Source: an uncultured Lachnospiraceae bacterium
GTDB lineage: Bacteria; Bacillota; Clostridia; Oscillospirales; CAG-272
Assembly (NCBI GenBank): GCA_964403505.1
Contig: CAYOFP010000001.1
Coordinates: forward strand, 70,548 to 134,547
Reading direction: 5' to 3'
Length of the DNA stretch: 64,000 bases
This document shows, piece by piece, positions 4,364 through 33,010 of this stretch (position 1 is its first letter; each line of letters begins with the position of its first letter). The notes below the pieces were generated by a model, which saw nothing but the letters and a program-made list of their open reading frames with translations, had not been told where the DNA came from and ran no database searches. The translations under genes were made by a program, and so were the position numbers.

Positions 4364-6406
4364 ATGGCGATTCTCGGAATAGGAAAACGAAAAAGTACGG
4401 AAACGGCGCAGAAGATCGGGAAAAAGGAGTTAAAGCACTTTGACGAAATTCTGCAAAAGTACAGAGAGGGCAAATCAAGCATAGAAGCCCGTGCCGTTGA
4501 AAACGAGGAATGGTGGAAGCTCCATCAATGGGAGCAGACGCAAAACGGAAATAAAAATGACATCCAACCACGGGGCGCGTACCTATGGAACACGATCGAG
4601 GTAAAGCACGCGGATGTGACTGCCGCATACCCCGAGCCGACCGTGCGTCCGCGCAACCAAGACGATATACCCGAAGCGGAAAAGCTGTCTTCAATACTGC
4701 CAGTAGTGCTCGAACAAAACGAGTTCCGCCGGGTATGGAGCGAGGTCAACAAGTATAAGCTAAAGCAAGGAACGGGAATTTACGGCGTTTTTTGGGACGG
4801 AGACCGTCTCGGCGGATTAGGAGATATCGCAATTAAAAAAATCGACATTTTGCGTATCTTCTGGGAGCCGGGAGTCACCGATATTCAATCCTCACGCTAT
4901 GTATTTCTCGTGGATCTGTGGGATATCGACCGACTCGAAGCGCAGTATCCCGAGCACGCCGGAAATTTAAAGAACGGCGGTAAGATGACTGTCAAAAATT
5001 ATTTATATGACGACAATGTCGACACAACAGATAAGGCGGTAGTGGTCGACGTCTATTACAAGGTGCAGCAGAACGGGCGTACTGTGTTGCATTACTGCAA
5101 ATACTGCGGAAACTGCGTGCTTTACGCAACGGAAAACGATACAGCGCCCTCCGCTGCCCTTTCCGACAGCGGTAATGAAACTGCTCCGGATGCCGCAGAG
5201 AACGGCGCACCCTGCCCTGCGCAAAACGGCCTTTACGATCACGGACTGTATCCCTTTGTATTTGATCCGCTCTTCGAGGTAGAGGGTTCGGTCGCCGGGT
5301 ATGGCTACATCGACATAGGAAAGTCGATACAATCACAGATCGACCTGATGGATCAGGCGTTTCTCAAATCGACACTCGCCAACTGCACGCCGCGGTATAT
5401 GATATCCGGAAATACCGGAGTGAACGAGGAAGAATTTGCCGACTTCACCCGTCCGTTTGTTCATTTCGAGGGGGCGCTCACCGATATCAATGTACGTGAA
5501 ATACCGCAGACCTCGCTTTCGGGCAACTTCCTCGATGTTTATCAGCTCAAAGTGAATGAGCTCAAGGAAGTGCTCGGAAACCGCGATGTGGCGAACGGAG
5601 GAACGACAAGCGGCGTGACCGCCGCTTCTGCTATTGCGACCCTGCAGGAGGTATCCGGGCGAATGAGCAAGGATTCTACCCGGGACGCTTACCGTGCGTT
5701 CAAGGGCGTAATAAATCTCTGCATCGAGCTCATTCGTCAGTTTTACACCGTTCCGCGTACCTTCCGCATTATCGGAGAGGGCGGTATGCAGAAATTTATC
5801 ACCTATACAAACGCAGGCCTCGGCGAGCAGGCGCAAAGCAATATCATGGGCGTGAAAATGGGAATGCGGCTCCCCGTCTTTGATATCGAGGTAAGTGCGC
5901 AGAATGCGACCGAATATACGAAGCAGTCGCAGAACGAAATGGCATTACAGTTCTTCTCGCTCGGGTTCTTTAATCCGGCGCTGTCGGATCAGGCGCTCGC
6001 CTGCCTCGAGACTATGGACTTTGATCACAAGGATGATGTGATGGACCGTGTGAGCAAGAACGGACTGTTATATCAGCGCTTACAGCAAATGCAACAGATC
6101 GCCATCGGCCTTGCAAGCAAGTATGAGCCTGAGTTAGCACAGGCGCTGATCGCACAAGGACAGGCGGACATGGGCGGCGTGGGGTTCCCCGAGGCGAGCG
6201 CAGGCGAGCCTTGGGGCGTTCCGAGCGGTGCGCCTATGGCAGGCGGCGCACAGATCTCTCGTTTTGCAGGAGAGGGAGAGGGTGCTTCCGAGCGCGTGGG
6301 GTTCCCCGCTGCGAGGTCACGCAGCGGCGGGGGTTCTGAGCACCCGAATGTGAAGCGAGCACGTGCGGCAGCACAAAATGCTGCACAGCCGGAGGGAGCG
6401 TCATGA
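4364..6406 (+). CDS. Portal protein with a repeat-derived Gly/Pro/Ala-rich C-terminal extension
   Basis: 680 aa, directly after TerL, with RBS GGAGGA. The last ~75 aa are encoded by the GC-rich hairpin repeat at 6181-6342. Confidence 0.8.
   Translation: MAILGIGKRKSTETAQKIGKKELKHFDEILQKYREGKSSIEARAVENEEWWKLHQWEQTQNGNKNDIQPRGAYLWNTIEVKHADVTAAYPEPTVRPRNQDDIPEAEKLSSILPVVLEQNEFRRVWSEVNKYKLKQGTGIYGVFWDGDRLGGLGDIAIKKIDILRIFWEPGVTDIQSSRYVFLVDLWDIDRLEAQYPEHAGNLKNGGKMTVKNYLYDDNVDTTDKAVVVDVYYKVQQNGRTVLHYCKYCGNCVLYATENDTAPSAALSDSGNETAPDAAENGAPCPAQNGLYDHGLYPFVFDPLFEVEGSVAGYGYIDIGKSIQSQIDLMDQAFLKSTLANCTPRYMISGNTGVNEEEFADFTRPFVHFEGALTDINVREIPQTSLSGNFLDVYQLKVNELKEVLGNRDVANGGTTSGVTAASAIATLQEVSGRMSKDSTRDAYRAFKGVINLCIELIRQFYTVPRTFRIIGEGGMQKFITYTNAGLGEQAQSNIMGVKMGMRLPVFDIEVSAQNATEYTKQSQNEMALQFFSLGFFNPALSDQALACLETMDFDHKDDVMDRVSKNGLLYQRLQQMQQIAIGLASKYEPELAQALIAQGQADMGGVGFPEASAGEPWGVPSGAPMAGGAQISRFAGEGEGASERVGFPAARSRSGGGSEHPNVKRARAAAQNAAQPEGAS
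6181..6342 (+). repeat. GC-rich hairpin repeat, copy A (two GGGGTTCCCC-hairpin-GGGGnTTC[C/T]GAGC subunits separated by ~65 bp)
   Basis: Subunit A1 at 6181-6229 and A2 at 6297-6342 closely match subunits B1 and B2 at 9306-9398. Each has an internal stem, for example CCGCTGCG-AGGTCA-CGCAGCGG. Confidence 0.75.
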
Positions 6407-9305: not shown

Positions 9306-9398
9306 GGGTTCCCCGAGGCGAGCGCAGTCGAGCCTTGGGGGGTCCGAGCAGCGAGGGGTTCCCCACTGCGAGGTACGCAGCAGTGGGGGTTCTGAGCA
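9306..9398 (+). repeat. GC-rich hairpin repeat, copy B (subunits B1 and B2, adjacent)
   Basis: GGGTTCCCCGAGGCGAGCGCAGTCGAGCCTTGGGG... and GGGGTTCCCCACTGCGAGGTACGCAGCAGTGGGGGTTCTGAGC. Copy B is intergenic, whereas copy A lies inside the portal ORF. Confidence 0.75.
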
Positions 9399-13745: not shown

Positions 13746-16700
13746 ATGAACGCAATAGACAAATATTTAGAAAAGAAAAAAGAGATGAGCGAGATCATCG
13801 GCGGTGCGATGCAAAGGCATGCAGATGAGGCACTTTCAAGCGGATTTGATAGCTTGGGAGCTGAATATGATAAACTATATAAGGCGCACCAGGCGGCTGA
13901 GAACACATGGACGAGCGCCGAGGACTTTAATGCGCTCGCAAAAAGCCGCACGGACTTTGTCGGGCGTGTGGAGGAGTTGAAAAAGTGGCTGCCGCACAGC
14001 TCATACGGCAAGGATAAACAAAATGAGCTTTACGCAAATCTTGACAGCATAAAAAAGGCGGTGGACGATTCACGTACTACTCCGAGAGGGAATGTAAGCC
14101 GTGGCAACAACTCACTCGCTTCGCTTGCTGAGAGCAGGCAGGCATATTACAGCGGATACAAGGATGCGGACGACTATGCGAAATGGTCTGCCGTCGAGGG
14201 CGGTTCACTCGAGGACATTCAGAAATTTATCGACGATGCGAAAGCCGAGGGGCGAGGGGATAAAATCGACACATACAAGATGCAGGGAGACGATTATACA
14301 ATAACTCGTCCGGGAGAGGGAGAATACCTCCGGCAGGCAGATATCGACCGTGCGCAGAAAATTTTCGACGGGAAAAAGTACACGCAGTCGGTTGACGGAA
14401 AGACCCTCACGGAGATCTACGAAAACGCTTACGCAAATTTCGAGAACGATCACGGAGAGTATTCCTATCTTTCCGACGCTGCCGCAGGGCTCGAGCGCAG
14501 TGCGCAGGAGTATGAGAGTGCGAACGAGTGGTTAAATGCGAAAAAGGCTGAGCTGGAACAAAAGCGGAATGCCTTACAGTCGGAGCTTGACAGCATTACC
14601 TTGCATGACAATGTCAACGGACATGTATTTACCTACTATTCCGAAGAAAACAAGCAAAGAGGAAAGAAGCTTGAAAGCGATATCTCGCAGGTCGACCATC
14701 AGATCGAGGCGGTCGGCGCTGATATAGAGAATATCAGCGAGTCAAGTCATGTCACAGAGTGGAATGCAGAGTATAATGCACTGCCCGAAGATGCCCGGTT
14801 TCTTATCGACTATTTAGCAAATTCGCAAGACAACCCATTCGTTGTGTACGATATAGAAGATGCGTCACGTGCGTCTGAAATGGTAGGAAAAGAATTTCCG
14901 AATATAAATGACATAGCCGAATATCTTACAGACACCGGGGTCGTAAGCGGTGGCAGCGAAGATGAAATTGCGAGGTCGGTGCAGGATTTAGTTAAACGGC
15001 GTAATAAGATAAATCATATGACAAGTTCTAAAGAAGCGGCTGAAAAACACGCTGAAAGCGCCAAAGAACATCCCGTATTAACATCGCTTGCTTCTATACC
15101 GACTTCGCTTGTATCGGGTATTGCGGCAATGCCCGAGGTTATACGGGGAACGATTGAAGGCGGCAAAGGGTACGAATACGGCGTTGACAGATATTCACCT
15201 GCTTTCGCCCCGACGAGATATACGCAGACGGTTCGTGGAACGGTCGGAGCAGGCATTGACAGCGAGGCGGGAAAATTCCTTTATCAAACGACAATGTCGG
15301 CGCTCGATTCCGCTGCGGCAATGACTGTGGGTATGGGCGTAGGTGCGGCATTCGGTGCGGCAAGCGGCGCTTCTTCTGCTGTGACGAATAAAATCATATC
15401 GGGTACGACAAATTTCATCATGTCGTCTTCTGCCGGAGCGAACGCTATATACGAAGGACTTGAAAAAGGTTATTCAAGCGAGAAGGCAGTCACGCTCGGT
15501 ATTATCTCCGGCGTGATAGAGGCGGCGAGCGAAACCTTTTCCATAGAGGCGATATTAAACAGCGCAGGGAATGACGCATTCTGGAAAACGGTCGCAAAGT
15601 CTTTCGCCGCAGAAGGCTCAGAGGAAGTAGTCTCAAATTGGGGCAATAAAATCGTAGATGCGATCGCAAACAAATCACAGGCGGAAATATATCAGTCGAT
15701 TCTATCATATCAGGACGCAGGAGAGAGCAGCGGCCAGGCGCTCGCACATGCGATCTTCGATTCGCTCGGTGAGGACGCCGCTGCATTTCTCGCAGGCGGT
15801 TTGTCAGGCGCTGCCATGGGTAGTGCGGCACAGCTCGGCAATATAGCAGGTGAACATATAGGAAATGCCATCGACACGCACAGACTTTCACGTTCCGCTT
15901 TGGATAACGACGGCGGTGTGCGCCTGGTCGAGGCGGCGCTCGAGCTTCCTGAAGGAAATACCGCACGCAAAGCCGCAGAGAAATACTCGGACGGCAATAA
16001 GAATGTAAGCAAGCATGACGCCGCCGTGATGATGCGTGAGGTCAACCGGAATCTGAGAAAGCAGATCTCTGCGCAGACGGAAAGTGCGGCAAAACAGGTA
16101 ATTGCAGACGAGCTCTCCGAACGGTACGGCATTACTGAATCTGATAAGCTTTCCGATATGATGGAGACGGCGTACCGTGCGCTGACCGGGCAGGAGCTGA
16201 GCCCGGACGAGCGTGCGTTATATGAGCAAAGCGAACAGATACGCGAGATCGTACAGGATATGCAGGGTGACCCGGACGGGAAGTTCGCCCGTTTTTTCAC
16301 AGAAACGACAACCGATGCGGCGATCTCTGCGACAGAACAAGCGATGCAGACCCGGGAAACGATCGCGGGTGTAGAGAGCGGAAGCACAAAAGCGCTCGGC
16401 AGTATTGTGCGCCCGTATATCGGCAAAGGAAATCAGAAGGTCGTACGCGGAACGAAAATCACGGCGATCAATGCCGACGGTACATTTGAGATGAGTACGG
16501 TCGATAACAAGGGTGCGGATGCGGGTACGGTTACCATAAGTACCGCCGACTTATCCTCAAAGGTGCGGAGTATTTATGACACAGTCATCGAGAGCACGGA
16601 CAATGCGAATATCGCAAATGCCATCATACAGGCGGCAGCGACTGACCGCAGGGTCGTGGCTCAGATAAGTCCGGAGTTGGTTTCGGCGGTATCGGACATA

Positions 16701-19700
16701 GCACGCTGTGGGTTCTCCCTGTCTGACAGCGGTATTGCGATGTTAGCAGGCGTAAATACTGCATCGTGGGAGAGGGCGGACAATACTCTGAAGCAGGCGA
16801 TATATAGCGCAACTAAAAAAGGCAACTCTGACGTAGGTGCGGTATATTCTTCGGTCACACGGGAGGATGTCGTGCAAGCTTATGCCGCATCCGACAAGCT
16901 CGGAACAAAGCATGCGGCAAATGCCATGCTTCGGCTGATCGAACGAACCGCCGAGCGGTACGGTGTGCAGGTCGTTTTTGCCGATCTCGCAAACGGATAC
17001 AAAGGCGGTCACATCGCCGGCACAAACAGAATCGTCCTCGGCATGGATATTGATGCAGGACTGCTCACCCGAACAATGGGACACGAGATGTTCCACTATC
17101 TGAAAGGACTGAACGGCGCGCTCTCAGGGCAGTTACAATCTGACGTGATAACGTGGCTTAAGGACACGGGCAAATATGATGCGGTATATGCACAGTTTGA
17201 GGAAAACTACAGCGAGGAAACCGCCCATCTGTCAGAGGCGAAAAAACGTGCATATCTCGAGGAAGAGATAGCGGCAGATTCCTGCTTTGACGCACTCTCA
17301 AATGAGCGTTTTCTCGGCGATTTTTACGTTCAGACCGCACAAAAGAAAAACGGAGCGGAATTTTTGCAGAAGCTCGCTGACTTTTTCACTTCCCTTTCGC
17401 AAATGCTTCGTGATGCGGTGGCGAACTTCACACAGAGATATAAATCGAACGAGCTTATAAAGGCGCTTTCGCAGGATGCAGATATGCTCGAGCACATCAA
17501 CGAGAAATTCCGGGAGCTTCTTGCAAGCGCAAAGTCGGCGGAAAATGAAAAAAGCGCTGCGAATGCGCAGCGTGAGGAGACAATACGCTTTTCCCGGATG
17601 AATGAGAAATCATTCGAGGAAAATGTAGATGCTGTCCTTGAAGCGAGCGATGCATATGCGAAACAGCACAAAGGAGACTTTGTTCGCGTAATGGAGCATA
17701 CGCCGGCGGTAATCCTCGATCATGTCGAGGATGCAGCGGATCTCGAGGTTATTATTCAATACCACTCGTTGTATCTGGAGACAAGACACGAAGGCGTACT
17801 CGAAGGAAATTATCACAATTTAGGACGAGAGATCGCAAAAAACCTCCCACAGTATATATCCGACCCGGATACAATCGTGCGGATGGACAACGATAGGCTC
17901 AATCTGTTTGCTACCATACAGGATCAAAAAAAGAATATACGCATTGTTTCGGTCGAGATGAATACGGTTCTGGACATTAACAGCAAATACCGTAAATACA
18001 ATCTTGTGTTAACCGTTTTCCCTGCGAAGGCGAACTATGTGAGTAACATAATAGCAAAACACGGAGTAAAAGTAGAATATGAAAAAGAAGGCCTTGCGCA
18101 AGTGAATCCCCAGCTGCATAAATCTCTGGGTATTGTTAACGCAAAACCTTCTACTGATAGTATATCCGATTCCGGGCAAGATGTCAACACTTCAGGGCAA
18201 GAAAATTCCGGAAATGTCCGCTATCAGATGTCAGCTGATAAATATTCATATGATGAGTTGGTAAGCAAGCCGGATATGCATGTCACGCAAATCAGCGATC
18301 GAAATATCCCGGAGCCGTCAAATCTTGCTCGCAAAGGAATTGTCAGTCATGCGCTCGAAAATGCCGAAAAGGTCGGAAAACGTCGGGAAGACGGCAATAT
18401 CAGCATTCATGTGAATGATACTGACTCTGATGTTATTTTATCCCGCAAAGGACTCGAGCACGGACTTGACCGCAGATTTTCGGTCAATGCACCTGTTACG
18501 CTTCAAGCAGGCAAGATACTGCAAAATGCCATCCGCATAAACGAAATGAACCCGAAAAAGAAAACGGCGACAGGAAGCAGTATCTTTATCGGTATGGCCA
18601 AAAACACAAAAAACGAACCGTATGTCGTGCGATTTGTAGTCAATGAGTTTTCCGGCGAGGTCGAGGATGTCAATGTCTTATATGCACTCAATGCAAAAAA
18701 AGAGCCGGGTGCATTGCTGCCTCCAGTCACGAAAAATTCCGCTCCGGATACCGACTCTACTATCAGTATATCCGATTTGCTCGACTTTGTCAACAGGTAT
18801 TTTCCGGATATTTTACCCGAAAGTGTTTTGCAACATTACGGATATACTGCACGTCCTGACGGCGTGCTCGGTAAAAGTGTCCGCTATCAAAAGTCGGCCG
18901 ACAGTGCGCAGGAAGCGGAGATCCGCAAACTGCGGCAGGATTATGAGCTTACCAAACTGCAAAACGATCTGATACGCAGTAAGTTGAAGGTATGGGAACA
19001 TAAAGTGCCGAGCCCGAAGGCTCTGCGACGGTACATGAATGATGTCATGCAGCGGTACGGCGTGCAGTATGACGATGCCGGGAAATTACAGGCGTTTGAA
19101 AAGCTTACTGAATTTTACGGGTACTTAGTGCGCAGTAAGACACCGAATATGGTGATCGTGCAGGATATGGCCTTTGACCTCGCCCGGGATATGATCGCCA
19201 ATTCGGCGGAATTAGAAAAAACGCCGTATGACAGCGTGGAGAGGGAGTTCCGCCGGACATTGCGTGAGACTGGCGTGCAGATCACCGAAGCGCAAAAGCG
19301 CGAGATCATAAACACCTATGGGACGATGACCAACTTCCGCCGGGAAAGCGGAGGTATGATCCGTATCAATAGCAACAGCAAGCTTTTTGTTGCCGATATT
19401 ATAGAGGAAGCACGGAGCATCTACGACATCAAAACGGATCACGAGGATGAATTCCTGGTCGAGCTGCTACCGTACATGAAAGCGAGCGCCGATGCGGCGC
19501 GCGGAGTGTGGGTCGATCCGTATAACGGGGACGCACAGATCGAGCACATGGCGGCGATGGACCTTGCCGCTACTCTGCTGGATGCGCTGTACGACCCGAA
19601 TATCGTGCCGGTGCGAAAGACCGTCACAGATATAGAAGCGGAAAAGCGGTACCGCGCTCTGATGCAGCAGTACAACTATTACGAAAAACGCATCGGGAAG

Positions 19701-22700
19701 CTGAACGACCGGGTAAGGCAGGCACGTGCCGAAGGCAGGCAGGCAGTGCAGAACGAACGCGGGCACAGGCAGGCAGCAATACGTCTGATGGCAGAACACT
19801 ATGCACAAATGACCGAAAAGGCACGCGAGCGACGCAAGCAAAGCGAAACGCGTGCAAAGATCGACCGACTGATGAATCAGATGAACGCACGACTTTTCAG
19901 ACCGACAAAGGAAAAGTATGTTCCTCAGAATATGCAATGCGCGATCATCGGAGTCCTGGAAGCGGCAAACCGCTTTGACGGCAATCGGTCTGAGCGACTC
20001 GCAAAATATGATCGCATGATCGCCGTAGCTGATCCTGAACAGCGCGAGCAGCTCGCAAGGATCCGTTCGGTCGTCGCCGAAGGAGGACAGAGCATAGGAG
20101 ACGCGATCAGCGCAGTCAGGCAGATGTATGACGCATACGCCGCAGGAGAAAACAGCGCACAAAGCGCAGCATACGATCCGCTCGTATCAAGAATGCTCGA
20201 GAGGGCTGAACAGGAACTGAAGGGAGCAAATGCAAACGATCTGAGTGCGGCACAGCTCGACACGCTATGGCGTGCGCTCAAAGCGACCGATCAGGTCGTA
20301 CGGGATGCGGTCAAGCTCAAAGGCAGTCGAATCAAAAAGGATGTTTATGAGGCAGGACGGGCGCTCATCGCCGAAACAAGGGCGATAAAAGGCTCGAAAA
20401 ACGGAATCGCATCATCGTTTCTGCAATCGATGCTCTCGCCTCGCTCATTTTTCGAGAGGTTGGGCGGATTCGCAAAAAACTCGTTGTGGGTCGCAATGTA
20501 TGATGACTTAAACGACGCACAGAGAGAAATGCTGAATATCAGAATGCAGGGGACGATGCTCTTTAACGACCTGATTACGGGAAAGGAAAATGCCGAGGCG
20601 CTTCGCAGGATGGTAAGCGAAAAGCATGCCGTCGACATCGGTCTGACTGACGCTGAAGGCGAGGCGATCAAGCTCACGCACGATCAGCTGATAGCGCTTT
20701 ACCTACATATGCAGAGCGATGACAACCTGCGCCATATGGAGTCCGGCGGCATCAGCATCCGCACAAAGAACGGGAAGATCCGTGCGGTCGGTGTGGGACA
20801 GAAGCTGGTCGAGGCAAATAATGCGATCCACGACGCACGTGCGCGAATCTCCGCCGCAGAGTGGCAGACGGGCACTGAGCAATGGCAGCACATGAGCGAC
20901 GAGCAAAAGCGTCCGATCCTCGATGAGTGGCAGGCGGCAAGAGAACAGCTCGAGCAGGCGGAACAGGAGACGAACCGTATCCGTGAGGAGCACATCGCAG
21001 GCCTCGAGGGGATGCGCGAAAAGATCGAGGCGGCGCTGACCGACTACGACCGGGAATGGATCAGTGCGGCGCAGGAATTTTTCCGTTACAGTGCATCGCT
21101 GATCGACGAGACAACCTACGACCGATACGGTTTCCACCGTGATCTCATCGAGAATTATTTCCCGATCCTGACTGATACGGACTATAACAAAACAGAGCTT
21201 GAAAGCTTCGGGAGCGAGATCACCCTCGACGGGCTCGGATTCCTTAAGGACCGTGTGACCTCGTACAATCCGCTCGTCCTCTCCGGCGTGACGGATACGG
21301 TCAGCCGTCATCTCGACGGAATCGCAAAGTATGCAGGAATGTCGGGAGCACTCGACAATTTCAAAAAAGTATACAACATGATCGATTCGGGTTATTCCGA
21401 CAGCGTGAAAAATGCGGTCAACGATGTTTTCGGCAATCGCAACGGCGGTGCGTACCTCGAAAAGATCATAAAAGACATGATCGGGGCGACGGGCGGTGAC
21501 GCAACGCTGGGCAAGCAGATCGCAGGGATCCTGCGAGGCGGACTTGCTAAATCGGCGCTGATACTCAATCCACGGGTTGCACTCTTACAGACTGCTTCCT
21601 ATCCGACGGCTGCTGCCGAGCTCGGATGGAGACCGCTCGCCCGTGCGCTTGCACGCAAAGACGGCGACAGTCTGCCGGTATTCAGCCGTGCGGATCAGGA
21701 GCTGATCGCAAAATACTCGCCGCTTTTATGGTACCGATTACAGGGATACACGACCGAAAGGCTCGACGGTCTTTCGGGAAAAGCGAAAGTAAGCACAAAG
21801 ATAAAAGACAACACCGTCATAAAGAAAGGCCTGCTCGGTTGGATCAATGCGATGGATGCGGCAACGGTCGGCAGGCTGTGGTATGCGGCGCAGTATTATG
21901 TCGACGAGCAGTTTGGGTATCTTGAGCATGGAAGCGAGGAATGGTATGAGCAGGTAGCACAGGCGTTTAACCGCACGGTCGAACGCACACAGCCGAACTA
22001 TACTACACTGCAACGCACGGCGATCGCACGGTCGCAAAACGAATTTGTAAAGTCGATCGCTATGTTTACGACACAGAGGCTGCAAAACTTCAATATCGCA
22101 TACTCTGCGGCGGCACGGCTGATGCGATATCAGCACGATTTCGGAAAAGGGTGCGGAGGCGTGACGAAAACAGATCTACGTAATGCACGCACCGCACTTA
22201 AAAACTCGCTTTCTTCCCTTATCGTGGCAGGCGTAGATATCGCAGTTTCACGGGTGCTGGTGCAGGCGTTACTTCACAACCTCAAAGCATACCGTGACGA
22301 TGACGACGAGCTGAGCGCACAAAGCGTCGCCGTCGGAACAGCGATGTATTTCAGTGAGAGTATGGCGAGCAATGTGCTTTTCGGAAGCGAAATATACCGA
22401 ATGATAGAAGCGTGTATTACGGGCGGTAAGTACTATACGACCGAGCTATCCGGAATCGGGACGGCTTTTGATATCGCCGGAGATATGGTTCAAAGCGTAC
22501 AAAATCTTATCAAAGGTGTTAAAAAAACTGATGAGGAGTCGGCTGACGATAGATGGGAAGGTGCTGTCAAGAGCGCAAAGAAGCTCGTCGGAGATCTATG
22601 CATCGCTTTCGGCATCCCTGCCCGCAATGTCGGCATGATCGTCGGTGCGGTCGGCGGACATATGAACAGTATAAAGGAAATCGCTTACGGCACTATCGAC

Positions 22701-23435
22701 GGAAAGTGGAAAAAATACTTTGACGACGACCTCGGGACACTCTCCTATGCACAAAAGGTAAAACAAATCGATGTACGCGAGGACGACCCGGAAGAGGTCG
22801 CACGCAAACTGCGTGAGCTGTATGACGGTGCATCGGATGAAGATGAGCGTAACGATATTGAGGAGGCAATCTTAAAGTACTTCCGCAAGAAGTGGGAGAA
22901 AGAGCCGGCTGGGCGGAATGAGTACTTTACCACATTGCACCGCACGGGGTTATGGGGTGAATCCTTCCTCAACGGAAAATTCCGTGAATGGGAGTACAAA
23001 AAGGACACAGGCGAGAAATCGTTCGGCGAATCGACAGACATATACAAGGCCATCCGAGACGGCGGAGATATAGATGCGGCGATCGAGGAATACAAGACAT
23101 TTATTCCTCAAACGGGCGACGAAGCCGAGAAGAAGGTGCATGAGACGGTAAGGAAACAAGTCGGCAAGAATCTGACAGACGGCAAGCTCGATGAGGACAC
23201 TGCGCTTTCCCTGCTCACGCAATATGCAGGTCAAAAACCGTCCGAGGCGGCAAAGACCATCGCAGGATTTAACAAATCGGCCGATCAGGCACGCATCAAA
23301 GAGCGATTCATGAATGGAGAGCTTGACTATGATGGTGCGGTCGACGCCCTGCGTGATATCGGAGATACACGCAAGGATGCAGAGAAGTGTGTCGACGGAT
23401 GGCAGGACGAGTGGAAAGATTATTTCCACGAATAA
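13746..23435 (+). CDS. Giant (3229 aa) multidomain phage protein; candidate virion-packaged polyvalent or ejection protein with an HExxH metallopeptidase motif
   Basis: A single uninterrupted ORF with RBS GGAGG. Gly/Ala/Ser-rich hydrophobic segments map to ~15075-15870. HEMFH is at 17082-17096 in the context RIVLGMDID...TMGHEMFHY. Two compact domains lie at ~17686-18090 and ~18390-18715. The long C-terminal half is helical. Confidence 0.8.
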   Translation: MNAIDKYLEKKKEMSEIIGGAMQRHADEALSSGFDSLGAEYDKLYKAHQAAENTWTSAEDFNALAKSRTDFVGRVEELKKWLPHSSYGKDKQNELYANLDSIKKAVDDSRTTPRGNVSRGNNSLASLAESRQAYYSGYKDADDYAKWSAVEGGSLEDIQKFIDDAKAEGRGDKIDTYKMQGDDYTITRPGEGEYLRQADIDRAQKIFDGKKYTQSVDGKTLTEIYENAYANFENDHGEYSYLSDAAAGLERSAQEYESANEWLNAKKAELEQKRNALQSELDSITLHDNVNGHVFTYYSEENKQRGKKLESDISQVDHQIEAVGADIENISESSHVTEWNAEYNALPEDARFLIDYLANSQDNPFVVYDIEDASRASEMVGKEFPNINDIAEYLTDTGVVSGGSEDEIARSVQDLVKRRNKINHMTSSKEAAEKHAESAKEHPVLTSLASIPTSLVSGIAAMPEVIRGTIEGGKGYEYGVDRYSPAFAPTRYTQTVRGTVGAGIDSEAGKFLYQTTMSALDSAAAMTVGMGVGAAFGAASGASSAVTNKIISGTTNFIMSSSAGANAIYEGLEKGYSSEKAVTLGIISGVIEAASETFSIEAILNSAGNDAFWKTVAKSFAAEGSEEVVSNWGNKIVDAIANKSQAEIYQSILSYQDAGESSGQALAHAIFDSLGEDAAAFLAGGLSGAAMGSAAQLGNIAGEHIGNAIDTHRLSRSALDNDGGVRLVEAALELPEGNTARKAAEKYSDGNKNVSKHDAAVMMREVNRNLRKQISAQTESAAKQVIADELSERYGITESDKLSDMMETAYRALTGQELSPDERALYEQSEQIREIVQDMQGDPDGKFARFFTETTTDAAISATEQAMQTRETIAGVESGSTKALGSIVRPYIGKGNQKVVRGTKITAINADGTFEMSTVDNKGADAGTVTISTADLSSKVRSIYDTVIESTDNANIANAIIQAAATDRRVVAQISPELVSAVSDIARCGFSLSDSGIAMLAGVNTASWERADNTLKQAIYSATKKGNSDVGAVYSSVTREDVVQAYAASDKLGTKHAANAMLRLIERTAERYGVQVVFADLANGYKGGHIAGTNRIVLGMDIDAGLLTRTMGHEMFHYLKGLNGALSGQLQSDVITWLKDTGKYDAVYAQFEENYSEETAHLSEAKKRAYLEEEIAADSCFDALSNERFLGDFYVQTAQKKNGAEFLQKLADFFTSLSQMLRDAVANFTQRYKSNELIKALSQDADMLEHINEKFRELLASAKSAENEKSAANAQREETIRFSRMNEKSFEENVDAVLEASDAYAKQHKGDFVRVMEHTPAVILDHVEDAADLEVIIQYHSLYLETRHEGVLEGNYHNLGREIAKNLPQYISDPDTIVRMDNDRLNLFATIQDQKKNIRIVSVEMNTVLDINSKYRKYNLVLTVFPAKANYVSNIIAKHGVKVEYEKEGLAQVNPQLHKSLGIVNAKPSTDSISDSGQDVNTSGQENSGNVRYQMSADKYSYDELVSKPDMHVTQISDRNIPEPSNLARKGIVSHALENAEKVGKRREDGNISIHVNDTDSDVILSRKGLEHGLDRRFSVNAPVTLQAGKILQNAIRINEMNPKKKTATGSSIFIGMAKNTKNEPYVVRFVVNEFSGEVEDVNVLYALNAKKEPGALLPPVTKNSAPDTDSTISISDLLDFVNRYFPDILPESVLQHYGYTARPDGVLGKSVRYQKSADSAQEAEIRKLRQDYELTKLQNDLIRSKLKVWEHKVPSPKALRRYMNDVMQRYGVQYDDAGKLQAFEKLTEFYGYLVRSKTPNMVIVQDMAFDLARDMIANSAELEKTPYDSVEREFRRTLRETGVQITEAQKREIINTYGTMTNFRRESGGMIRINSNSKLFVADIIEEARSIYDIKTDHEDEFLVELLPYMKASADAARGVWVDPYNGDAQIEHMAAMDLAATLLDALYDPNIVPVRKTVTDIEAEKRYRALMQQYNYYEKRIGKLNDRVRQARAEGRQAVQNERGHRQAAIRLMAEHYAQMTEKARERRKQSETRAKIDRLMNQMNARLFRPTKEKYVPQNMQCAIIGVLEAANRFDGNRSERLAKYDRMIAVADPEQREQLARIRSVVAEGGQSIGDAISAVRQMYDAYAAGENSAQSAAYDPLVSRMLERAEQELKGANANDLSAAQLDTLWRALKATDQVVRDAVKLKGSRIKKDVYEAGRALIAETRAIKGSKNGIASSFLQSMLSPRSFFERLGGFAKNSLWVAMYDDLNDAQREMLNIRMQGTMLFNDLITGKENAEALRRMVSEKHAVDIGLTDAEGEAIKLTHDQLIALYLHMQSDDNLRHMESGGISIRTKNGKIRAVGVGQKLVEANNAIHDARARISAAEWQTGTEQWQHMSDEQKRPILDEWQAAREQLEQAEQETNRIREEHIAGLEGMREKIEAALTDYDREWISAAQEFFRYSASLIDETTYDRYGFHRDLIENYFPILTDTDYNKTELESFGSEITLDGLGFLKDRVTSYNPLVLSGVTDTVSRHLDGIAKYAGMSGALDNFKKVYNMIDSGYSDSVKNAVNDVFGNRNGGAYLEKIIKDMIGATGGDATLGKQIAGILRGGLAKSALILNPRVALLQTASYPTAAAELGWRPLARALARKDGDSLPVFSRADQELIAKYSPLLWYRLQGYTTERLDGLSGKAKVSTKIKDNTVIKKGLLGWINAMDAATVGRLWYAAQYYVDEQFGYLEHGSEEWYEQVAQAFNRTVERTQPNYTTLQRTAIARSQNEFVKSIAMFTTQRLQNFNIAYSAAARLMRYQHDFGKGCGGVTKTDLRNARTALKNSLSSLIVAGVDIAVSRVLVQALLHNLKAYRDDDDELSAQSVAVGTAMYFSESMASNVLFGSEIYRMIEACITGGKYYTTELSGIGTAFDIAGDMVQSVQNLIKGVKKTDEESADDRWEGAVKSAKKLVGDLCIAFGIPARNVGMIVGAVGGHMNSIKEIAYGTIDGKWKKYFDDDLGTLSYAQKVKQIDVREDDPEEVARKLRELYDGASDEDERNDIEEAILKYFRKKWEKEPAGRNEYFTTLHRTGLWGESFLNGKFREWEYKKDTGEKSFGESTDIYKAIRDGGDIDAAIEEYKTFIPQTGDEAEKKVHETVRKQVGKNLTDGKLDEDTALSLLTQYAGQKPSEAAKTIAGFNKSADQARIKERFMNGELDYDGAVDALRDIGDTRKDAEKCVDGWQDEWKDYFHE

Positions 23436-28856: not shown

Positions 28857-29114
28857 ATGGAAACAGAAATTATTGTTGCACTAATCACATTGCTCGGCAG
28901 TGCGATAGGAACATTCGCCGGAATTGCGGTCAATTCAAAACTGACAAACTACCGTATCGAACAACTTGAGAAAAAACAGGACAAGCACAATCAGGTGGTC
29001 GAGCGGGTATATCATCTCGAAGAGCGTGTCGCGGTACAAGACGAGGAGATCAAAGTCGCAAATCATCGGATCTCCGATCTTGAAGGCTTGGAAAAACAAA
29101 ACCGTACATCATGA
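28857..29114 (+). CDS. Lysis-cassette membrane protein (N-terminal TM helix plus coiled coil)
   Basis: IIVALITLLGSAIGTFAGIAV forms the TM helix, followed by heptad-like EQLEKKQDKHNQVVERVYHLEERV. It lies just upstream of the holin. Confidence 0.5.
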   Translation: METEIIVALITLLGSAIGTFAGIAVNSKLTNYRIEQLEKKQDKHNQVVERVYHLEERVAVQDEEIKVANHRISDLEGLEKQNRTS

Positions 29115-29185
29115 CTGACAATTTCAAAACACTACAATGTAATCTTAGGGCTTCGACAGCCCTTGAAAATAAGGAGGAATAAAAG

Positions 29186-29383
29186 ATGAAAAACATCAAA
29201 GCATGGATGAAAGCAGCAGGAATCAGAGCAATCAGAACGGTCGCTCAGACGGCGATCGCAACCATCGGAACGAGCGCACTGATCTCCGACGTGAATTGGG
29301 CGGTCGTTGCGTCCGCATCGGTTTTGGCAGGTGGGCTCTCGCTGCTCACGAGCGTTGCCACAAAACTGCCCGAGGTCGAGTGA
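29186..29383 (+). CDS. Holin
   Basis: 65 aa, RBS AAGGAGG. IRTVAQTAIATIGTSALISDVNW...ASVLAGGLSLLTSVA is typical of small two-TM Firmicutes phage holins. It lies immediately before the endolysin. Confidence 0.8.
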   Translation: MKNIKAWMKAAGIRAIRTVAQTAIATIGTSALISDVNWAVVASASVLAGGLSLLTSVATKLPEVE

Positions 29384-29384
29384 T

Positions 29385-30254
29385 ATGCTGCCGATCGTAC
29401 AGAACCTTATCCCGGAGTCGCTTTGGAATCTCAAAGCGACATACGGGATGGTGCCGGAAAAACTGTGTATTCATAACACCGCAAACGATGCGCCGGCAGA
29501 AAACGAGGCGCGCTATGTACACAATAATCCTGCTGCGACCTCGTACCATTTTGCAGTAGACGATGTACAGGCAGTACAGATCATACCGTTCGACCGTAAT
29601 GGATGGCACGCAGGAGATGGATCATACGGTCCGGGAAACCGCAAGAGCGTCGGAATTGAAATATGTTACTCGCTCTCAGGCGGAAAACGATTCGAGAGGG
29701 CGCAGGAAAACGCCGCTGAGCTGTGTGTGCGATTGATGCACGAGTTCGGATGGGGACTTGACCTTAGTCGGATCACAAAGCACGAGGACTATGCGAATAA
29801 GCACTGCCCGCATCGTACACTTGACGATTACGGGTGGGATTATTACCTTGCACTTGTAAAAGAAAAATATGAAGAATTATACCCGGAGGATATACCTATG
29901 ACAACGTCAGAAAAGAAAGCTTTTGATGCGCTCTCAAAAAATGTAGATGCGCTGATTAAGCAAAATGATACGCTACAGAAAAACCTTACAGCATATGCTA
30001 AAGAGAATACACAGCTTAAAAAGGATTTTGAAAATATAAGCAAAAAAATTGTACCATGTATTACAAGTGTAGACTGGGATGCACATATTACGGATGCGAT
30101 GGGAGGAAAAGAGGCTGTCGCAATGCTTGATAAGCTCAGAGCAAACGGTGATTTTGCTGGTAAGGACTCAGCACATTTCGGACTTTCCGAACAGATGGTA
30201 CGCATGATGCTGATCTTCTATCGGATTCTCAATCGACTCGGAATTTATAAATGA
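29385..30254 (+). CDS. Endolysin, N-acetylmuramoyl-L-alanine amidase (Amidase_2/PGRP type)
   Basis: IHNTANDAPAENEARYVHNN...SYHFAVDD...NGWHAGDG...SVGIEICY...HEDYANKHCPHR. The ATG at 29385 is 1 nt after the holin stop. The C-terminal ~110 aa are coiled-coil-like and not a wall-binding module I recognise. Confidence 0.9.
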   Translation: MLPIVQNLIPESLWNLKATYGMVPEKLCIHNTANDAPAENEARYVHNNPAATSYHFAVDDVQAVQIIPFDRNGWHAGDGSYGPGNRKSVGIEICYSLSGGKRFERAQENAAELCVRLMHEFGWGLDLSRITKHEDYANKHCPHRTLDDYGWDYYLALVKEKYEELYPEDIPMTTSEKKAFDALSKNVDALIKQNDTLQKNLTAYAKENTQLKKDFENISKKIVPCITSVDWDAHITDAMGGKEAVAMLDKLRANGDFAGKDSAHFGLSEQMVRMMLIFYRILNRLGIYK

Positions 30255-30331: not shown

Positions 30332-30372
30332 AAAAAATCACACACAGATTTGTACTTCTGTGTGTGATTTTA
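30332..30372. terminator. Bidirectional terminator at the end of the lysis cassette
   Basis: Stem ATCACACACAGA / TCTGTGTGTGAT (12 bp perfect), flanked by A6 and T4. Confidence 0.8.
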
Positions 30373-30381
30373 ATATTCAAA

Positions 30382-31578
30382 TTATTCTTTGGCTTCGCTT
30401 ATGGCCGAGGAATCTTCTGTTGAAATCTCTACACCGTCCGATGTATCGATATTTACATTCACATTTATATCCTTGGCAGGCTCAGAATTATCCGTATCTG
30501 ATTGAGATTCCTCGAAACTCTTGGAATCGCCTTTTTCGGGGCATGTGAATTGCCAATAGATCCCCAATGTCATTATAACGATTAGAACAGTACAGATAAC
30601 AATCGCAACCCACCCCGGAAAATGTTCTTGCCACCATCTGGTTATTGTGGATCCACCATCTTGTTCTCTGTCTGCGCCTTTACCGCTAAGTTTTTCAATA
30701 AATCGAAACATCACATATATCAGGCAGAAAGAAATTAAGCCAACGAGTGCCGCAACGCTTATCAGGCGAAAGAAATTAGCGTCTTTTACGCTTGCAAGAA
30801 TCGAAGACGAGTAAACCCAGCTCCCAACAATCGTAACCATAATTGCCGCAAAAATGCCTAATATTGTGACGCTCATTTCAGAGTTTTTCCGAGTTATCTC
30901 CGCCATTTTAACCTCGACTGCTTTTTTAACCTCGTCCTTTGCTGATTCTTTAATATTTTCTTGTGAGTCTTTCAAAGCATTCTCAACTACTTCATTTGCT
31001 TTTCTCTCGGCTACTTCATTTGCTTTTCTCTCGGCTACTTCATTTGCTTTTCTCTCGGCTACTTCATCTGTCTTTCTCTCAGCTGCTTCTTCTAATCTCT
31101 GTACGATTGAATTCGATGCTCTTTCAGAATGAATGTCATAAAAACGTTTAAAAATATCATGATGTTCAATGATGTCTCCAATATACACAAGAACAATTTT
31201 GAGAACTCGAGGTAAATTATTGTTAGAATGATTTTCCTTATAATACTTTTCACATTTATCGCAAAAGGATAAATAAGCGCCGCCGCTAGTAAATTCAAAT
31301 GGCTGCGGAATATATGGCTGAGATATAGATATATTCTGATAAAAATTTTTAATATAAATACCTACCGAATCCTGAATAAATGTTCTGACATGAAATTCCA
31401 TTTCATTTTCATCTGAATTCAATATCTCAATATCATCCGAGGTTAAATTATCCATCCATTTTTTTGCGTCTATGATTGATGTATCCAAAGAATCTTTTGA
31501 CGTAAATATAATTTCACAAAAAGCAGTAACTATTTGCTTAAGTTGTTCATAATTCTGTGCTTTTCCATTGTCCCTCAT
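30382..31578 (-). CDS. Membrane protein: N-terminal soluble domain, coiled coil with AERKANEV repeats, three TM helices, acidic tail. Candidate toxin/effector.
   Basis: 398 aa. The three TM helices are VTILGIFAAIMVTIVGSWVY, FFRLISVAALVGLISFCLIYVMF and GWVAIVICTVLIVIMTLGIYWQF. The gene is AT-rich. It lies 33 nt downstream of the 241-aa gene. Confidence 0.6.
   Translation of the reverse strand: MRDNGKAQNYEQLKQIVTAFCEIIFTSKDSLDTSIIDAKKWMDNLTSDDIEILNSDENEMEFHVRTFIQDSVGIYIKNFYQNISISQPYIPQPFEFTSGGAYLSFCDKCEKYYKENHSNNNLPRVLKIVLVYIGDIIEHHDIFKRFYDIHSERASNSIVQRLEEAAERKTDEVAERKANEVAERKANEVAERKANEVVENALKDSQENIKESAKDEVKKAVEVKMAEITRKNSEMSVTILGIFAAIMVTIVGSWVYSSSILASVKDANFFRLISVAALVGLISFCLIYVMFRFIEKLSGKGADREQDGGSTITRWWQEHFPGWVAIVICTVLIVIMTLGIYWQFTCPEKGDSKSFEESQSDTDNSEPAKDINVNVNIDTSDGVEISTEDSSAISEAKE
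30987..31082 (-). repeat. In-frame 24-bp tandem repeat (3 perfect units plus 1 degenerate)
   Basis: CTACTTCATTTGCTTTTCTCTCGG occurs three times (30987-31058), followed by CTACTTCATCTGTCTTTCTCTCAG. It encodes AERKTDEV followed by (AERKANEV)x3. Confidence 0.95.
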
Positions 31579-31611
31579 ATTTATTGCCTCTCCTTAAAAT
31601 GCATTCCTTTT

Positions 31612-32337
31612 TTAATAGTTCCGCAAAAAGTCTATTACACGTCGATATTTCTCATCAACTGAATCAAAGAGACTTTTATCCAACTTCTGTATTTTAGCAA
31701 GATCGATTATGTTCTCCAAAGTTGTTACCCCTGGCGCTTCCGCAATGGGGTTAAGACATTCTCCGAGATACGATGGTAAATAGGCACCGAATAATTGAAA
31801 CACTTGATCAATTATACCTCTTGTTTCATCACTGACGCTAGAAGTATTTTGATATTCCGAGGGAATTTCGCAATCAATAATTGGACTATTAACAATAGCT
31901 TCATTTGTATCCTCATAGCTATACTGTCTATAAATATCAGTAGCCATGAATCGTTCCATAATTTCATATATAGCCATACCGCAATCAGTGTATTTATATA
32001 CATTTTCTTTAAATACCCGCTTATTCTGACGTGCATATACTAAAGCAACGATAGATAACAGTTTCCCCACTTTAGTTCTCGTGCAAGAATATCGTTGCCC
32101 TGTTTTGTAAAACCATTGAATAAGATAATTTGTTGCTTCCTCTAAATTTGCATTTAGTTCTTCCATAGCTCCGTTACTTTCACAGGCGTAATCCTGCCTG
32201 CAATGCGGAAACTTTGCCGGCTCGGGCTTGTCCGCATTTACCTCCATTAAAATTTTTGAATTCCTTGTTCCGAAAACCGAAAAGCTAATCGTTATTGTTT
32301 TTTCAAAATCGAATACCATTGATGCTCGTTCTTTCAT
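31612..32337 (-). CDS. Panacea/SocA (DUF4065)-like protein; candidate antitoxin
   Basis: ATNYLIQWFYKTGQRYSCTRTKVGKLLSIVALVYARQNKRVFKENVYKYTDCGMAIYEIMERF parallels the DUF4065 pattern (A-x-Y-[IF]-L...T-x-x-K-L-x-KLLY...LF-x-E-x-F-x-A-W-x-x-GP-V-x-x-x-VY-x-x-F). This is a by-eye assignment. Confidence 0.5.
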   Translation of the reverse strand: MKERASMVFDFEKTITISFSVFGTRNSKILMEVNADKPEPAKFPHCRQDYACESNGAMEELNANLEEATNYLIQWFYKTGQRYSCTRTKVGKLLSIVALVYARQNKRVFKENVYKYTDCGMAIYEIMERFMATDIYRQYSYEDTNEAIVNSPIIDCEIPSEYQNTSSVSDETRGIIDQVFQLFGAYLPSYLGECLNPIAEAPGVTTLENIIDLAKIQKLDKSLFDSVDEKYRRVIDFLRNY

Positions 32338-32476
32338 AACATATTTGTTTTCGTCTTAATAGCGTGACATTTAATCGGACGCATAACACGAATAACAATT
32401 AATGCTAACCTAAAAATTCGGCTTAGTCAAGAAAGATATGTCGTATTCTGGTGTACAAGCAACAAAAATACTCTAA

Positions 32477-32529
32477 GAAAAAACAAAACACCCATCTCTA
32501 ACAGAGACAGGGCGCCAAAAGAGATCGGG
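32477..32529 (-). terminator. Candidate terminator/attenuator inside the long leader of the island operon
   Basis: On the minus strand: CCCGATCTCT...AGAGATGGG (9 bp with a 1-nt bulge and a large loop), then TGTTTTGTTTTTTC. Confidence 0.3.
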
Positions 32530-32669: not shown

Positions 32670-32697
32670 ATTTTATCATATTTTTCCATTTTGTCAA
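32670..32697 (-). promoter_or_regulatory. Sigma-A-type promoter ~330 nt upstream of the 241-aa gene
   Basis: On the minus strand: TTGACA (32692-32697), 16 nt, TAAAAT (32670-32675). Confidence 0.45.
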
Positions 32698-32830: not shown

Positions 32831-32888
32831 AAAAAGCAAATAACCCTTGATATCACTGAGAAATTCAGTAATATCAAGGGTTATTTGC
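32831..32888 (-). terminator. Terminator of tRNA-Lys
   Basis: Stem GCAAATAACCCTTGATAT / ATATCAAGGGTTATTTGC (18 bp perfect) starts 1 nt after the tRNA CCA end and is followed by TTTTT on the minus strand. Confidence 0.85.
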
Positions 32889-32889
32889 T

Positions 32890-32965
32890 TGGTGCTCCTG
32901 TGGAGAATCGAACTCCAGACACCTTGATTAAAAGTCAAGTGCTCTACCGGCTGAGCTACAGGGGC
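32890..32965 (-). tRNA. tRNA-Lys (anticodon UUU)
   Basis: 76-nt cloverleaf read by hand: acceptor GCCCCTG/CAGGAGC (one C3:A70 mismatch), D arm GCTC-AGCCGGTA-GAGC, anticodon arm CTTGA-CTTTTAA-TCAAG, T arm TGGAG-TTCGATT-CTCCA, and an encoded CCA end. Confidence 0.9.
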
Positions 32966-32981
32966 GTTTCATGACCAGATA

Positions 32982-33010
32982 ATAATACCACAATGAGATA
33001 TTTTTGTCAA
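32982..33010 (-). promoter_or_regulatory. Sigma-A promoter of tRNA-Lys
   Basis: On the minus strand: TTGACA (33005-33010), 17 nt, TATTAT (32982-32987). It lies ~16 nt upstream of the tRNA 5' end. Confidence 0.65.

Follow-up and report, generated by a model that had tools for sequence, protein, structure and literature searches.

Between the lysis genes of a prophage and a tRNA-Lys gene, in a 64,000-nucleotide (nt) stretch of contig CAYOFP010000001.1 from an uncultured Lachnospiraceae bacterium (the whole of which we refer to as the window), lies a cassette of two minus-strand open reading frames (ORFs) that we call genes A and B. Gene A, at 31612-32337(-), encodes a diverged Panacea-like putative antitoxin of 241 amino acids (aa), and gene B, at 30382-31578(-), a putative membrane toxin of 398 aa; the operon junction between them is a 33-nt spacer (31579-31611, minus strand) carrying the Shine-Dalgarno sequence AAGGAGAGG ahead of B. 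The length of 241 aa is that of the longest ORF, which begins at 32337, but the true start of A is probably Met7 (ATG at 32319), giving 235 aa, because NCBI calls a protein of that length (P0001) and the N-termini of its homologs (MTxFDF) align there. We take both to be real genes because A has homologs in 279 clusters at 50% identity and those of B are conserved. The GC contents of A and B (0.365 and 0.367) differ from those of the phage part of the window (0.499, positions 1-30254) and the host part (0.474, positions 33111-64000), and since the lysis genes are on the plus strand, the cassette is convergent with the phage late genes. The initial annotation of this locus proposed an undescribed toxin–antitoxin or abortive-infection pair, and everything it described of the layout was confirmed: the ORF positions, the spacing, the AT-richness, the strand opposite to the late genes, the tRNA-Lys and, within B, the AERKANEV repeats, three hydrophobic helices and acidic tail.

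The product of B is predicted, on the basis of its ORF, PHROG matches, hydropathy and an AlphaFold2 (AF2) model, to consist of a helical N-terminal domain, a coiled coil, three transmembrane (TM) helices and an acidic tail, all encoded on the minus strand. The N-terminal domain (aa 1-165, 31084-31578) is specific to the B family and was modeled with a predicted local distance difference test score (pLDDT) of ~60-87. In the coiled coil, a tandem repeat of 24 nt x 4.3 (30987-31089; Tandem Repeats Finder score 171, 93% matches) encodes the AERKANEV repeats; close B homologs lack it, showing a 24-column gap at this site in the alignment, so that the coiled-coil stalk has been lengthened recently and in the window copy only. 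Then come the TM1-TM2 hairpin (aa 233-297, 30688-30882), which has the motif E-x-SVTILGIF...SS...G, TM3 (aa 317-346, 30541-30630) and a disordered acidic tail (30385-30540) with a net charge of -11 and pLDDT <50 for aa 348-398. Hydropathy places the three hydrophobic helices at about 236-262, 268-293 and 321-345. The AF2 model is all-helical, its long helix spanning 152-205 and its TM helices 233-261, 269-299 and 311-345, and has an overall pLDDT of 60 and a predicted template-modeling score (pTM) of 0.37; because of these low scores, a Foldseek search with it against BFVD was uninformative.

The hairpin is the most conserved part of B, with a mean column identity of 0.74 and with E234, ILGIF (239-243), S258/S259 and G280 near-invariant, and it is also the part that links B to proteins that have been described. 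B matched two PHROGs, phrog_5763 (4.3e-17) and phrog_38724 (9e-10), and tblastn matched its TM region to Moraxella phage Mcat28 and to a prophage of Helicobacter rodentium, in both of which a bona fide Panacea gene (PF13274 E = 1.3e-15 in Mcat28 and 4e-16 in H. rodentium) overlaps the 5' end of the B-like gene. Like B, the B-like proteins of Mcat28 and H. rodentium match phrog_5763. By hhalign, a 16-member B alignment matched the H. rodentium protein WP_026943962.1 (L013:2509-3393) with a probability of 98.6% and E = 1e-15 (the range for the hairpin was 98.3-98.6%, E = 1e-15 to 2.5e-14), the Mcat28 protein with 97.8% and a protein of Streptococcus phage Javan182 with 88%. For the B N-terminal domain, the probability against three T4 proteins was <=0.4%, in what is a weak test as the templates were single sequences. 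In Dataset S1 of Kurata et al. (2022, PMC8832971), the H. rodentium pair belongs to toxin cluster T4 of the Panacea systems and has A|T order with a 20-nt overlap, and the arrangement at L013 matches that overlap exactly. Toxins of cluster T4 occur commonly in Clostridia and as a rule have canonical Panacea antitoxins as partners; the cluster includes the validated PanT toxin of a Helicobacter sp., which has an N-terminal coiled coil and C-terminal TM helices, depolarizes the membrane without large (SYTOX-permeable) pores and is neutralized by its PanA antitoxin (Kurata et al., 2022, PMC8832971). We conclude from these alignments that the TM hairpin of B is homologous to that of the T4 PanT cluster and that B is not an orphan. 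The initial annotation, which recognized no family for the protein, has to be corrected on this point, and because the hairpin belongs with that cluster the pair cannot be called undescribed.

Several further matches to B were rejected. Those in PADLOC, to LeoBC (E = 0.0017) and PD-Lambda-5_A (E = 0.0044), lie in the coiled-coil/TM region at ~14-16 bits and we consider them compositional; those in Pfam and NCBIfam were sub-threshold TM/coiled-coil noise; and a sequence search of the PDB with the B family profile returned only coiled-coil noise of the ATP synthase b type (E>0.5). Among the homologs, one metagenome contig (L005 8796-10685) encodes a 629-aa B variant which is homologous to B over aa 1-230 only and diverges in the middle of TM1, with a Cys-rich soluble C-terminal region of ~400 aa replacing TM2-TM3. 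An A gene still precedes it, and the variant could be a frameshift, a fusion or a different effector carried on the same N-terminal domain.

The relationship of A to Panacea is more distant, and it emerged from comparison of profiles. The A family is large, an exhaustive profile search at E<=1e-3 giving the 279 clusters mentioned above. As a reference we used 11 Panacea proteins from annotated phages, all 11 with the GPV signature, of which two were confirmed against PF13274 (Panacea/SocA_Panacea, DUF4065, COG3600) at 58.8-60.3 bits, where the Pfam gathering threshold is 25.7 bits, and several others were annotated by their depositors as DUF4065, SocA or GepA. The hhalign probability for the A family against this set was 80% (E = 1.4e-5) with 11 A sequences, 90% (E = 1.7e-6) with 43 and 94.9% (E = 4.6e-8, score 59.1) with 153. 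The score of 59.1 compares with 10.2 for the reversed profile and maxima of 17.3 in 30 column shuffles and 27.8 in 20 block shuffles. The alignment runs collinearly over ~125 columns, the whole domain, with a sequence identity of 10%. It pairs ATNYLIQ of A with VAxxIL in the first Panacea helix, TRTKxGKLLSI with LKLQKLLYY, xFxE.IYKY.dCGtAI.EI with LFxE..AW.YGPVvpeVY, and VFxxFGAY with a later Panacea helix. This is the same alignment as that on which the initial annotation, from the motifs, had called A Panacea-like, and hhalign recovered it with clean controls.

The aligned region, which we term the Panacea-like core of A (aa 58-195, 31753-32166, minus strand), comprises a helix, the central helix TRTKxGKLLSI, three short strands and further helices. 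The AF2 model of A, confident over aa 56-241 and with pLDDT >80 over most of aa 60-241, has helices at 65-78 and 87-103, strands at 106-109, 113-116 and 120-123 and then six helices, a layout consistent with the published description of the Panacea fold, in which other helices pack around a central one and two to three strands form a small sheet (PMC8832971). Ahead of the core there is an N-terminal extension of ~55 aa, disordered in the model. Weaker signals came from elsewhere: A matched phrog_1281 at E = 0.01, where the true PanAs of Mcat28 and the H. rodentium prophage give 1e-36 to 1e-38, and one A-family member carries the generic label of the Joint Genome Institute (JGI), "uncharacterized phage-associated protein." We conclude that A is truly related to Panacea, though strongly diverged and beyond the reach of the Pfam model.

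At the position equivalent to GPV, gene A of the window encodes C-G-M-A-I (aa 119-123, 31969-31983, minus strand) and the family consensus is C-G-T-x-I. Column counts over the 153 members were C in 142, G in 150, T in 111 (P in 2 and V in 9 at this third position) and I in 122. Cysteines without a counterpart in canonical Panacea proteins were observed at three sites (codons on the minus strand): C85 in YSCTRTK (145 of 153 members; 32083-32085), C119 before the conserved Gly (142 of 153; 31981-31983) and C194 (48 of 153; 31756-31758). The conserved cysteines may form a disulfide, a metal site or a redox site.

The two families are very constantly linked. A lies directly upstream of B at every locus with a B gene, in 18 independent arrangements consisting of the window and 17 others, and the spacing at all the homologous loci is an overlap or <=33 nt. 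These loci cover metagenome contigs (L001-3, L004, L005, L006/7/11/12 and L008-10), 10 of 12 genome loci, the single IMG/VR locus and the most divergent B (L041). The pairwise divergences of A and B are correlated (r=0.92, 120 locus pairs), a value that inheritance as a linked unit could also give. B was never found without A. A was found without B once, in the genome of a Bacilli metagenome-assembled genome (MAG; L034), and on a further contig (L033) the sequence ends directly after A. Linkage to A is, then, obligate for B, and this asymmetry, with A sometimes alone and B never, is that expected of an antitoxin and its toxin. The conserved synteny that the initial annotation had called for is accordingly very strong. 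The orphan A gene (L034 3974-4648), the sole one found, has neither the N-terminal extension nor a B gene downstream, and it adjoins a D-Ala-D-Ala carboxypeptidase-like gene and type IV pilus/competence-like genes.

The settings of these loci are diverse: a conjugative element with a relaxase and a coupling protein (L004), an island with tRNA-Ser and an integrase (L008), a site adjacent to tRNA-Ala (L006) and chromosomal sites in MAGs of Acutalibacteraceae, Oscillospiraceae, Agathobacter and Bacilli. A phmmer search near the homologous cassettes for lysis, integrase and relaxase genes recovered the known integrase and relaxase plus an integrase-like ORF in L024; lysis genes beside the cassette were found in the window only, with none within ~4 kb at the homologous loci. 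Judging by these contexts, the A-B module is a mobile accessory unit.

How might such a pair function? We think it fairly probable that A-B is a diverged PanA/PanT-type (type II-like) toxin–antitoxin or abortive-infection module. A and B would be co-transcribed, with A first, and A would bind B directly and hold it inactive, either through its Panacea-like core, as in standalone PanAs, or through its predicted-disordered N-terminal extension, as in modular PanAs (PMC10440598). If A disappeared, were titrated away or responded to an allosteric trigger, as might happen when a phage infects the cell or the element is lost, the hairpin and TM3 of the freed B would dissipate the membrane potential, with the coiled coil probably driving oligomerization, and the depolarization would lead to arrest or death of the cell. 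At the edge of a prophage, such a module may serve in abortive infection, superinfection exclusion or stabilization of (addiction to) the element. The homologies, the operon, the linkage and the mobility of the module are demonstrated here, whereas we infer that B is toxic and that A neutralizes it by binding, as well as the trigger and the role of the module in the cell. The idea of a membrane effector restrained by the upstream protein, which was part of the initial annotation, is in keeping with what is known of the T4 PanAT pairs to which A-B is homologous.

Several observations weigh against this interpretation and deserve to be set out together. With respect to A, the lack of a DUF4065 match was a ground on which the initial annotation would itself have been rejected, and hmmscan gave none: neither the window protein nor nine further family members matched PF13274 at E<=1, and A is therefore outside the Pfam Panacea family as modeled. 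Marginal matches were limited to 2 of 11 family members (best E = 0.048) and 1 of 43 (E = 1e-4). The GPV signature, which lies in a beta-strand by the central helix and is reported to be critical for neutralization (Kurata et al., PMC8832971), is not conserved among the 153 A-family sequences. Foldseek gave no match for the A model in the PDB, and the PDB searches brought up no solved Panacea structure; its only convincing matches, the three best in BFVD (probability 1.0, template-modeling score 0.56-0.69 on the target) were unnamed phage proteins, and its match to a named Panacea model was weak (E = 4.4, template-modeling score 0.46). With respect to B, the homology with T4 proteins extends no further than the TM1-TM2 hairpin, and scores over such a stretch, ~70 residues of membrane helix, can be inflated by composition; a protein of 398 aa with a soluble domain of 165 aa is also large for a simple membrane toxin. 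A T4 member from a Clostridium difficile phage was non-toxic in Escherichia coli (Kurata et al., 2022, PMC8832971). PADLOC-DB v2 gave no significant match for A or B, and for A none at all. Finally, at one locus (L042 431-1225, compared with L041 457-1251) A is split into ORFs of 125 and 119 aa beside an identical, intact B (P0016); the split may stem from misassembly, or A may be a natural pseudogene there, and if real it argues that B is not lethal alone. Other searches with A also came back empty, namely direct scans of Pfam, NCBIfam and PADLOC, which gave nothing significant, and a PDB sequence search with the family profile. A word-indexed search with the divergent A alignment surfaced no PF13274-bearing matches, which reflects a limit of the index.

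Could A and B be something other than a toxin–antitoxin pair? B might be a non-toxic membrane protein of mobile elements, acting in superinfection exclusion, surface modulation or the timing of lysis in the manner of a holin or antiholin, with A as its dedicated cytoplasmic chaperone, assembly factor or regulator. The size of B and its conserved soluble N-terminal domain, which has no detectable counterpart in the T4 toxins, would suit such a role, as would the location of the window cassette next to a lysis module, where canonical Panacea pairs are also found in phages Javan182 and Chenonceau. It would also accommodate the split A beside an intact B and the non-toxic T4 member, one of eight PanTs overall that were non-toxic (PMC8832971). 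However, the hairpin of B is homologous to a cluster containing a validated depolarizing toxin that its PanA neutralizes, A occurs alone but B does not, most homologous cassettes are away from lysis genes and B has no match among the Pfam holin families; we therefore regard this explanation as rather unlikely. A more radical alternative is that A is no homolog of Panacea at all, its helical motifs resembling those of Panacea by convergence or chance, and that A-B is an unrelated two-gene system that merely has a TM hairpin in common with T4 proteins. The failure of PF13274, the missing GPV signature, the identity of only 10% and the lack of a significant structural match to a named Panacea model are all compatible with this. 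Against it, the hhalign probability climbs with alignment depth over a collinear whole domain and lies far above the reversed and shuffled controls, and independent weak signals agree, PF13274 being the most frequent marginal Pfam family and the phrog_1281 match and the JGI label pointing the same way. The partners of B homologs are, moreover, true Panacea proteins, and the genes stand in the same order. On this balance, chance resemblance seems improbable.

A separate question is "Is the cassette cargo of the prophage beside which it lies?" The position after the lysin resembles that of canonical Panacea pairs in two unrelated Firmicute phages, which occupy a slot equal to that of the window cassette: in Streptococcus phage Javan182 (L015 1519-2894) such a pair follows the lysin, and in Flavonifractor phage Chenonceau (L023 473-1265) it is convergent with the lysis genes; in both, the pair adjoins the lysis cassette directly and lies at the end of the genome. 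This filling of the post-lysis slot by PanAT pairs, together with the hairpin terminator that the lysin and B genes appear to share (see below), argues for carriage by the phage. It is nevertheless quite conceivable, if somewhat less than an even chance, that A-B is an independent small island or host accessory locus between the tRNA-Lys/L10-leader region and the attachment site of the prophage, and that its position after the lysin is coincidental. The contexts of the homologous cassettes and their lack of nearby lysis genes favor this, as do the GC content of 0.37 against 0.50 for the phage, the presence of only one IMG/VR locus and the result of a tblastn search of A against 50,697 phage genomes, in which there was no match even at E<=10. 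No direct repeats were found flanking the cassette, the 3' end of tRNA-Lys is not repeated within the window, and att sites for a phage or an island were not found in the window or in Logan contigs of the same genome, which speaks against a separate island. The claim of the initial annotation that the cassette is in the classic moron position is consequently not established. Whichever holds, the independent-island explanation concerns carriage rather than function and is compatible with the PanAT interpretation.

The prophage itself could be followed only in part. Its left end lies beyond the window, and a walk leftward through the Logan contigs led through a phage early region and a repressor to a contig end. 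A look-up of the host acetyltransferase returned only a 1.4-kb contig that breaks within the tRNA. The portal protein matched only uncultured faecal phages at <=50% identity, and blastn of the right end of the prophage found no related phages.

On the other side of the cassette, the 552-nt gap from A to tRNA-Lys is occupied by a ribosomal protein L10 leader together with a promoter and a terminator. Rfam matches the leader in full length (RF00557; 32474-32652, minus strand), from model position 1 to 138 of 138, at 53.7 bits (gathering score, 44) and E = 4e-7 to 5e-8. It has the core AAGACAG-AGGGG...CCU-CCGAGG, its promoter-like site (32670-32697) is strong, and its attenuator terminator is at 32491-32511. 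It ends 137 nt upstream of A, where A stands in place of rplJ: neither rplJ nor rplL comes after the leader or lies anywhere in the window, which has no rplL signature. As none of the 17 homologous A-B loci has the leader, we attribute it to this genome rather than to the cassette. There are two explanations: the cassette, alone or together with the prophage, entered the site between the leader and rplJ, or the genome has an additional leader from which read-through enters A-B. Two metagenome scans for an empty site or relatives, one for an exact 28-mer and one for a gapped pattern spanning tRNA-Lys and the L10 core, had no matches. It is very improbable, in our estimation, that A-B is under the control of the leader, with read-through set by the free L10/L12 pool via the L10(L12)4-binding motif. 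Were this true, it would couple a membrane-depolarizing toxin system to the status of ribosome assembly and translation, for example during phage takeover. Whether relic or co-opted, an L10 leader beside such a cassette is an unusual arrangement. A second, weak promoter-like site (TTGACT-17-TAGCAT, 9/12 in a consensus scan; 32402-32430, minus strand) lies ~65 nt upstream of A; the number of sites of this kind is not above shuffle expectation.

Beyond the leader is tRNA-Lys(UUU) (32890-32965, minus strand; ARAGORN and Rfam), which has a promoter (32982-33010) and a terminator hairpin (32834-32890) of its own. On the phage side, the lysis module convergent with the cassette (28857-30254, plus strand, Pfam) consists of an XhlA-like protein (28857-29114; XhlA 1e-6, below the gathering score), an r1t-type holin (29186-29383; Phage_r1t_holin 2.5e-11) and an Amidase_2 endolysin (29382-30254; Amidase_2 1e-19), and terminase, P22-type portal, capsid and BppU genes precede it on the plus strand. 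Between the stop codons of the lysin and B is an inverted repeat (30334-30371, no strand assigned), a perfect hairpin with a 15-bp stem (100% complementary) and runs of A and T on both sides, which is likely a bidirectional terminator common to the two convergent genes. Two other features of the prophage were observed. A single ORF of 3229 aa in the tail region (13746-23435, plus strand) is very large for a tape-measure/tail protein. A sequence of ~45-57 nt is repeated with 89-93% identity at 6174-6226, 6287-6342, 9306-9349 and 9343-9398 and at L040 4074-4126; these copies, which came up as secondary blastn matches, lie close to the genes for portal and capsid and in the early region to the left of the window.

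Comparison with described systems clarifies what is, and what is not, new about A-B. The nearest are the T4 PanA-PanT pairs (Kurata et al., 2022, PMC8832971), of which that of Helicobacter sp. 13S00482-2 (WP_095295401.1/WP_095295403.1) was validated and that of H. rodentium (WP_084310206.1/WP_026943962.1) is another example. A-B has in common with them the order of antitoxin then toxin with an overlap or short spacer, an upstream protein homologous to Panacea, a toxin with an N-terminal coiled coil and C-terminal TM helices that include a homologous hairpin, and carriage on prophages and mobile elements, frequently in Clostridia. It differs in that A is missed by PF13274, has C-G-T-x-I for GPV and two family-specific cysteines and usually bears an N-terminal extension of 40-60 aa, and in that B has gained its extra 165-aa helical domain. 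Furthermore, the A family pairs with one toxin family only and so lacks the promiscuity of partners that defines Panacea.

More distant parallels exist. In SocA-SocB of Caulobacter crescentus, an upstream protein of the Panacea superfamily counteracts the co-encoded toxin, as we propose for A, but SocB acts on the DNA-replication clamp rather than the membrane, and SocA is a ClpXP adaptor that delivers the toxin to the protease whereas most PanAs bind directly (PMC8832971). RmrT of RosmerTA (RmrTA of Gordonia phage Kita; Ernits et al., 2023, PMC10440598), Hok and TisB are, like the predicted B, depolarizing effectors with TM helices that a partner keeps in check; systems of this type are phage-encoded and defense-linked, and we found no sequence relationship between them and A-B. 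Rosmer antitoxins are ImmA-protease/helix-turn-helix proteins, unlike A, and Hok and TisB, unlike B, are RNA-regulated peptides of ~30-50 aa. Holin/antiholin pairs, too, involve a small multi-TM protein beside a lysis cassette, restrained by a partner and with depolarization as the endpoint, as we envisage for A-B. Unlike holins, B has no match to a holin family and is on the strand opposite to the lysis genes, most of the homologous cassettes are not in phages, and the window prophage already has its r1t-type holin and XhlA besides B.

We conclude from these comparisons that A-B represents a new branch of the known PanAT systems, in which a GPV-less, single-partner Panacea clade is joined to a T4-type toxin with a gained N-terminal domain, rather than a system of a new kind. 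Nor is it an ordinary Panacea member, because it fails both the Pfam gathering score and the GPV motif, and the initial annotation of an undescribed pair therefore gives way to that of a diverged PanAT branch whose architecture and likely mechanism have already been described. A could be annotated as a PanA-like antitoxin and B as a T4-type PanT-like membrane toxin. The Panacea superfamily would thereby be extended past the Pfam model by ~280 clusters (50% identity), whose members come mostly from Firmicutes of the gut and rumen and are currently annotated as hypothetical, and since the clade escapes detection by Pfam, surveys seeded with PF13274, such as that of Kurata et al. (2022), would miss it. 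A clade without GPV and with a single toxin offers a natural test of the role of GPV and of the Panacea core, in neutralization versus the sensing of triggers. If the A family is indeed a GPV-less and partner-faithful clade of Panacea, then neither GPV nor promiscuity would be intrinsic to the fold.

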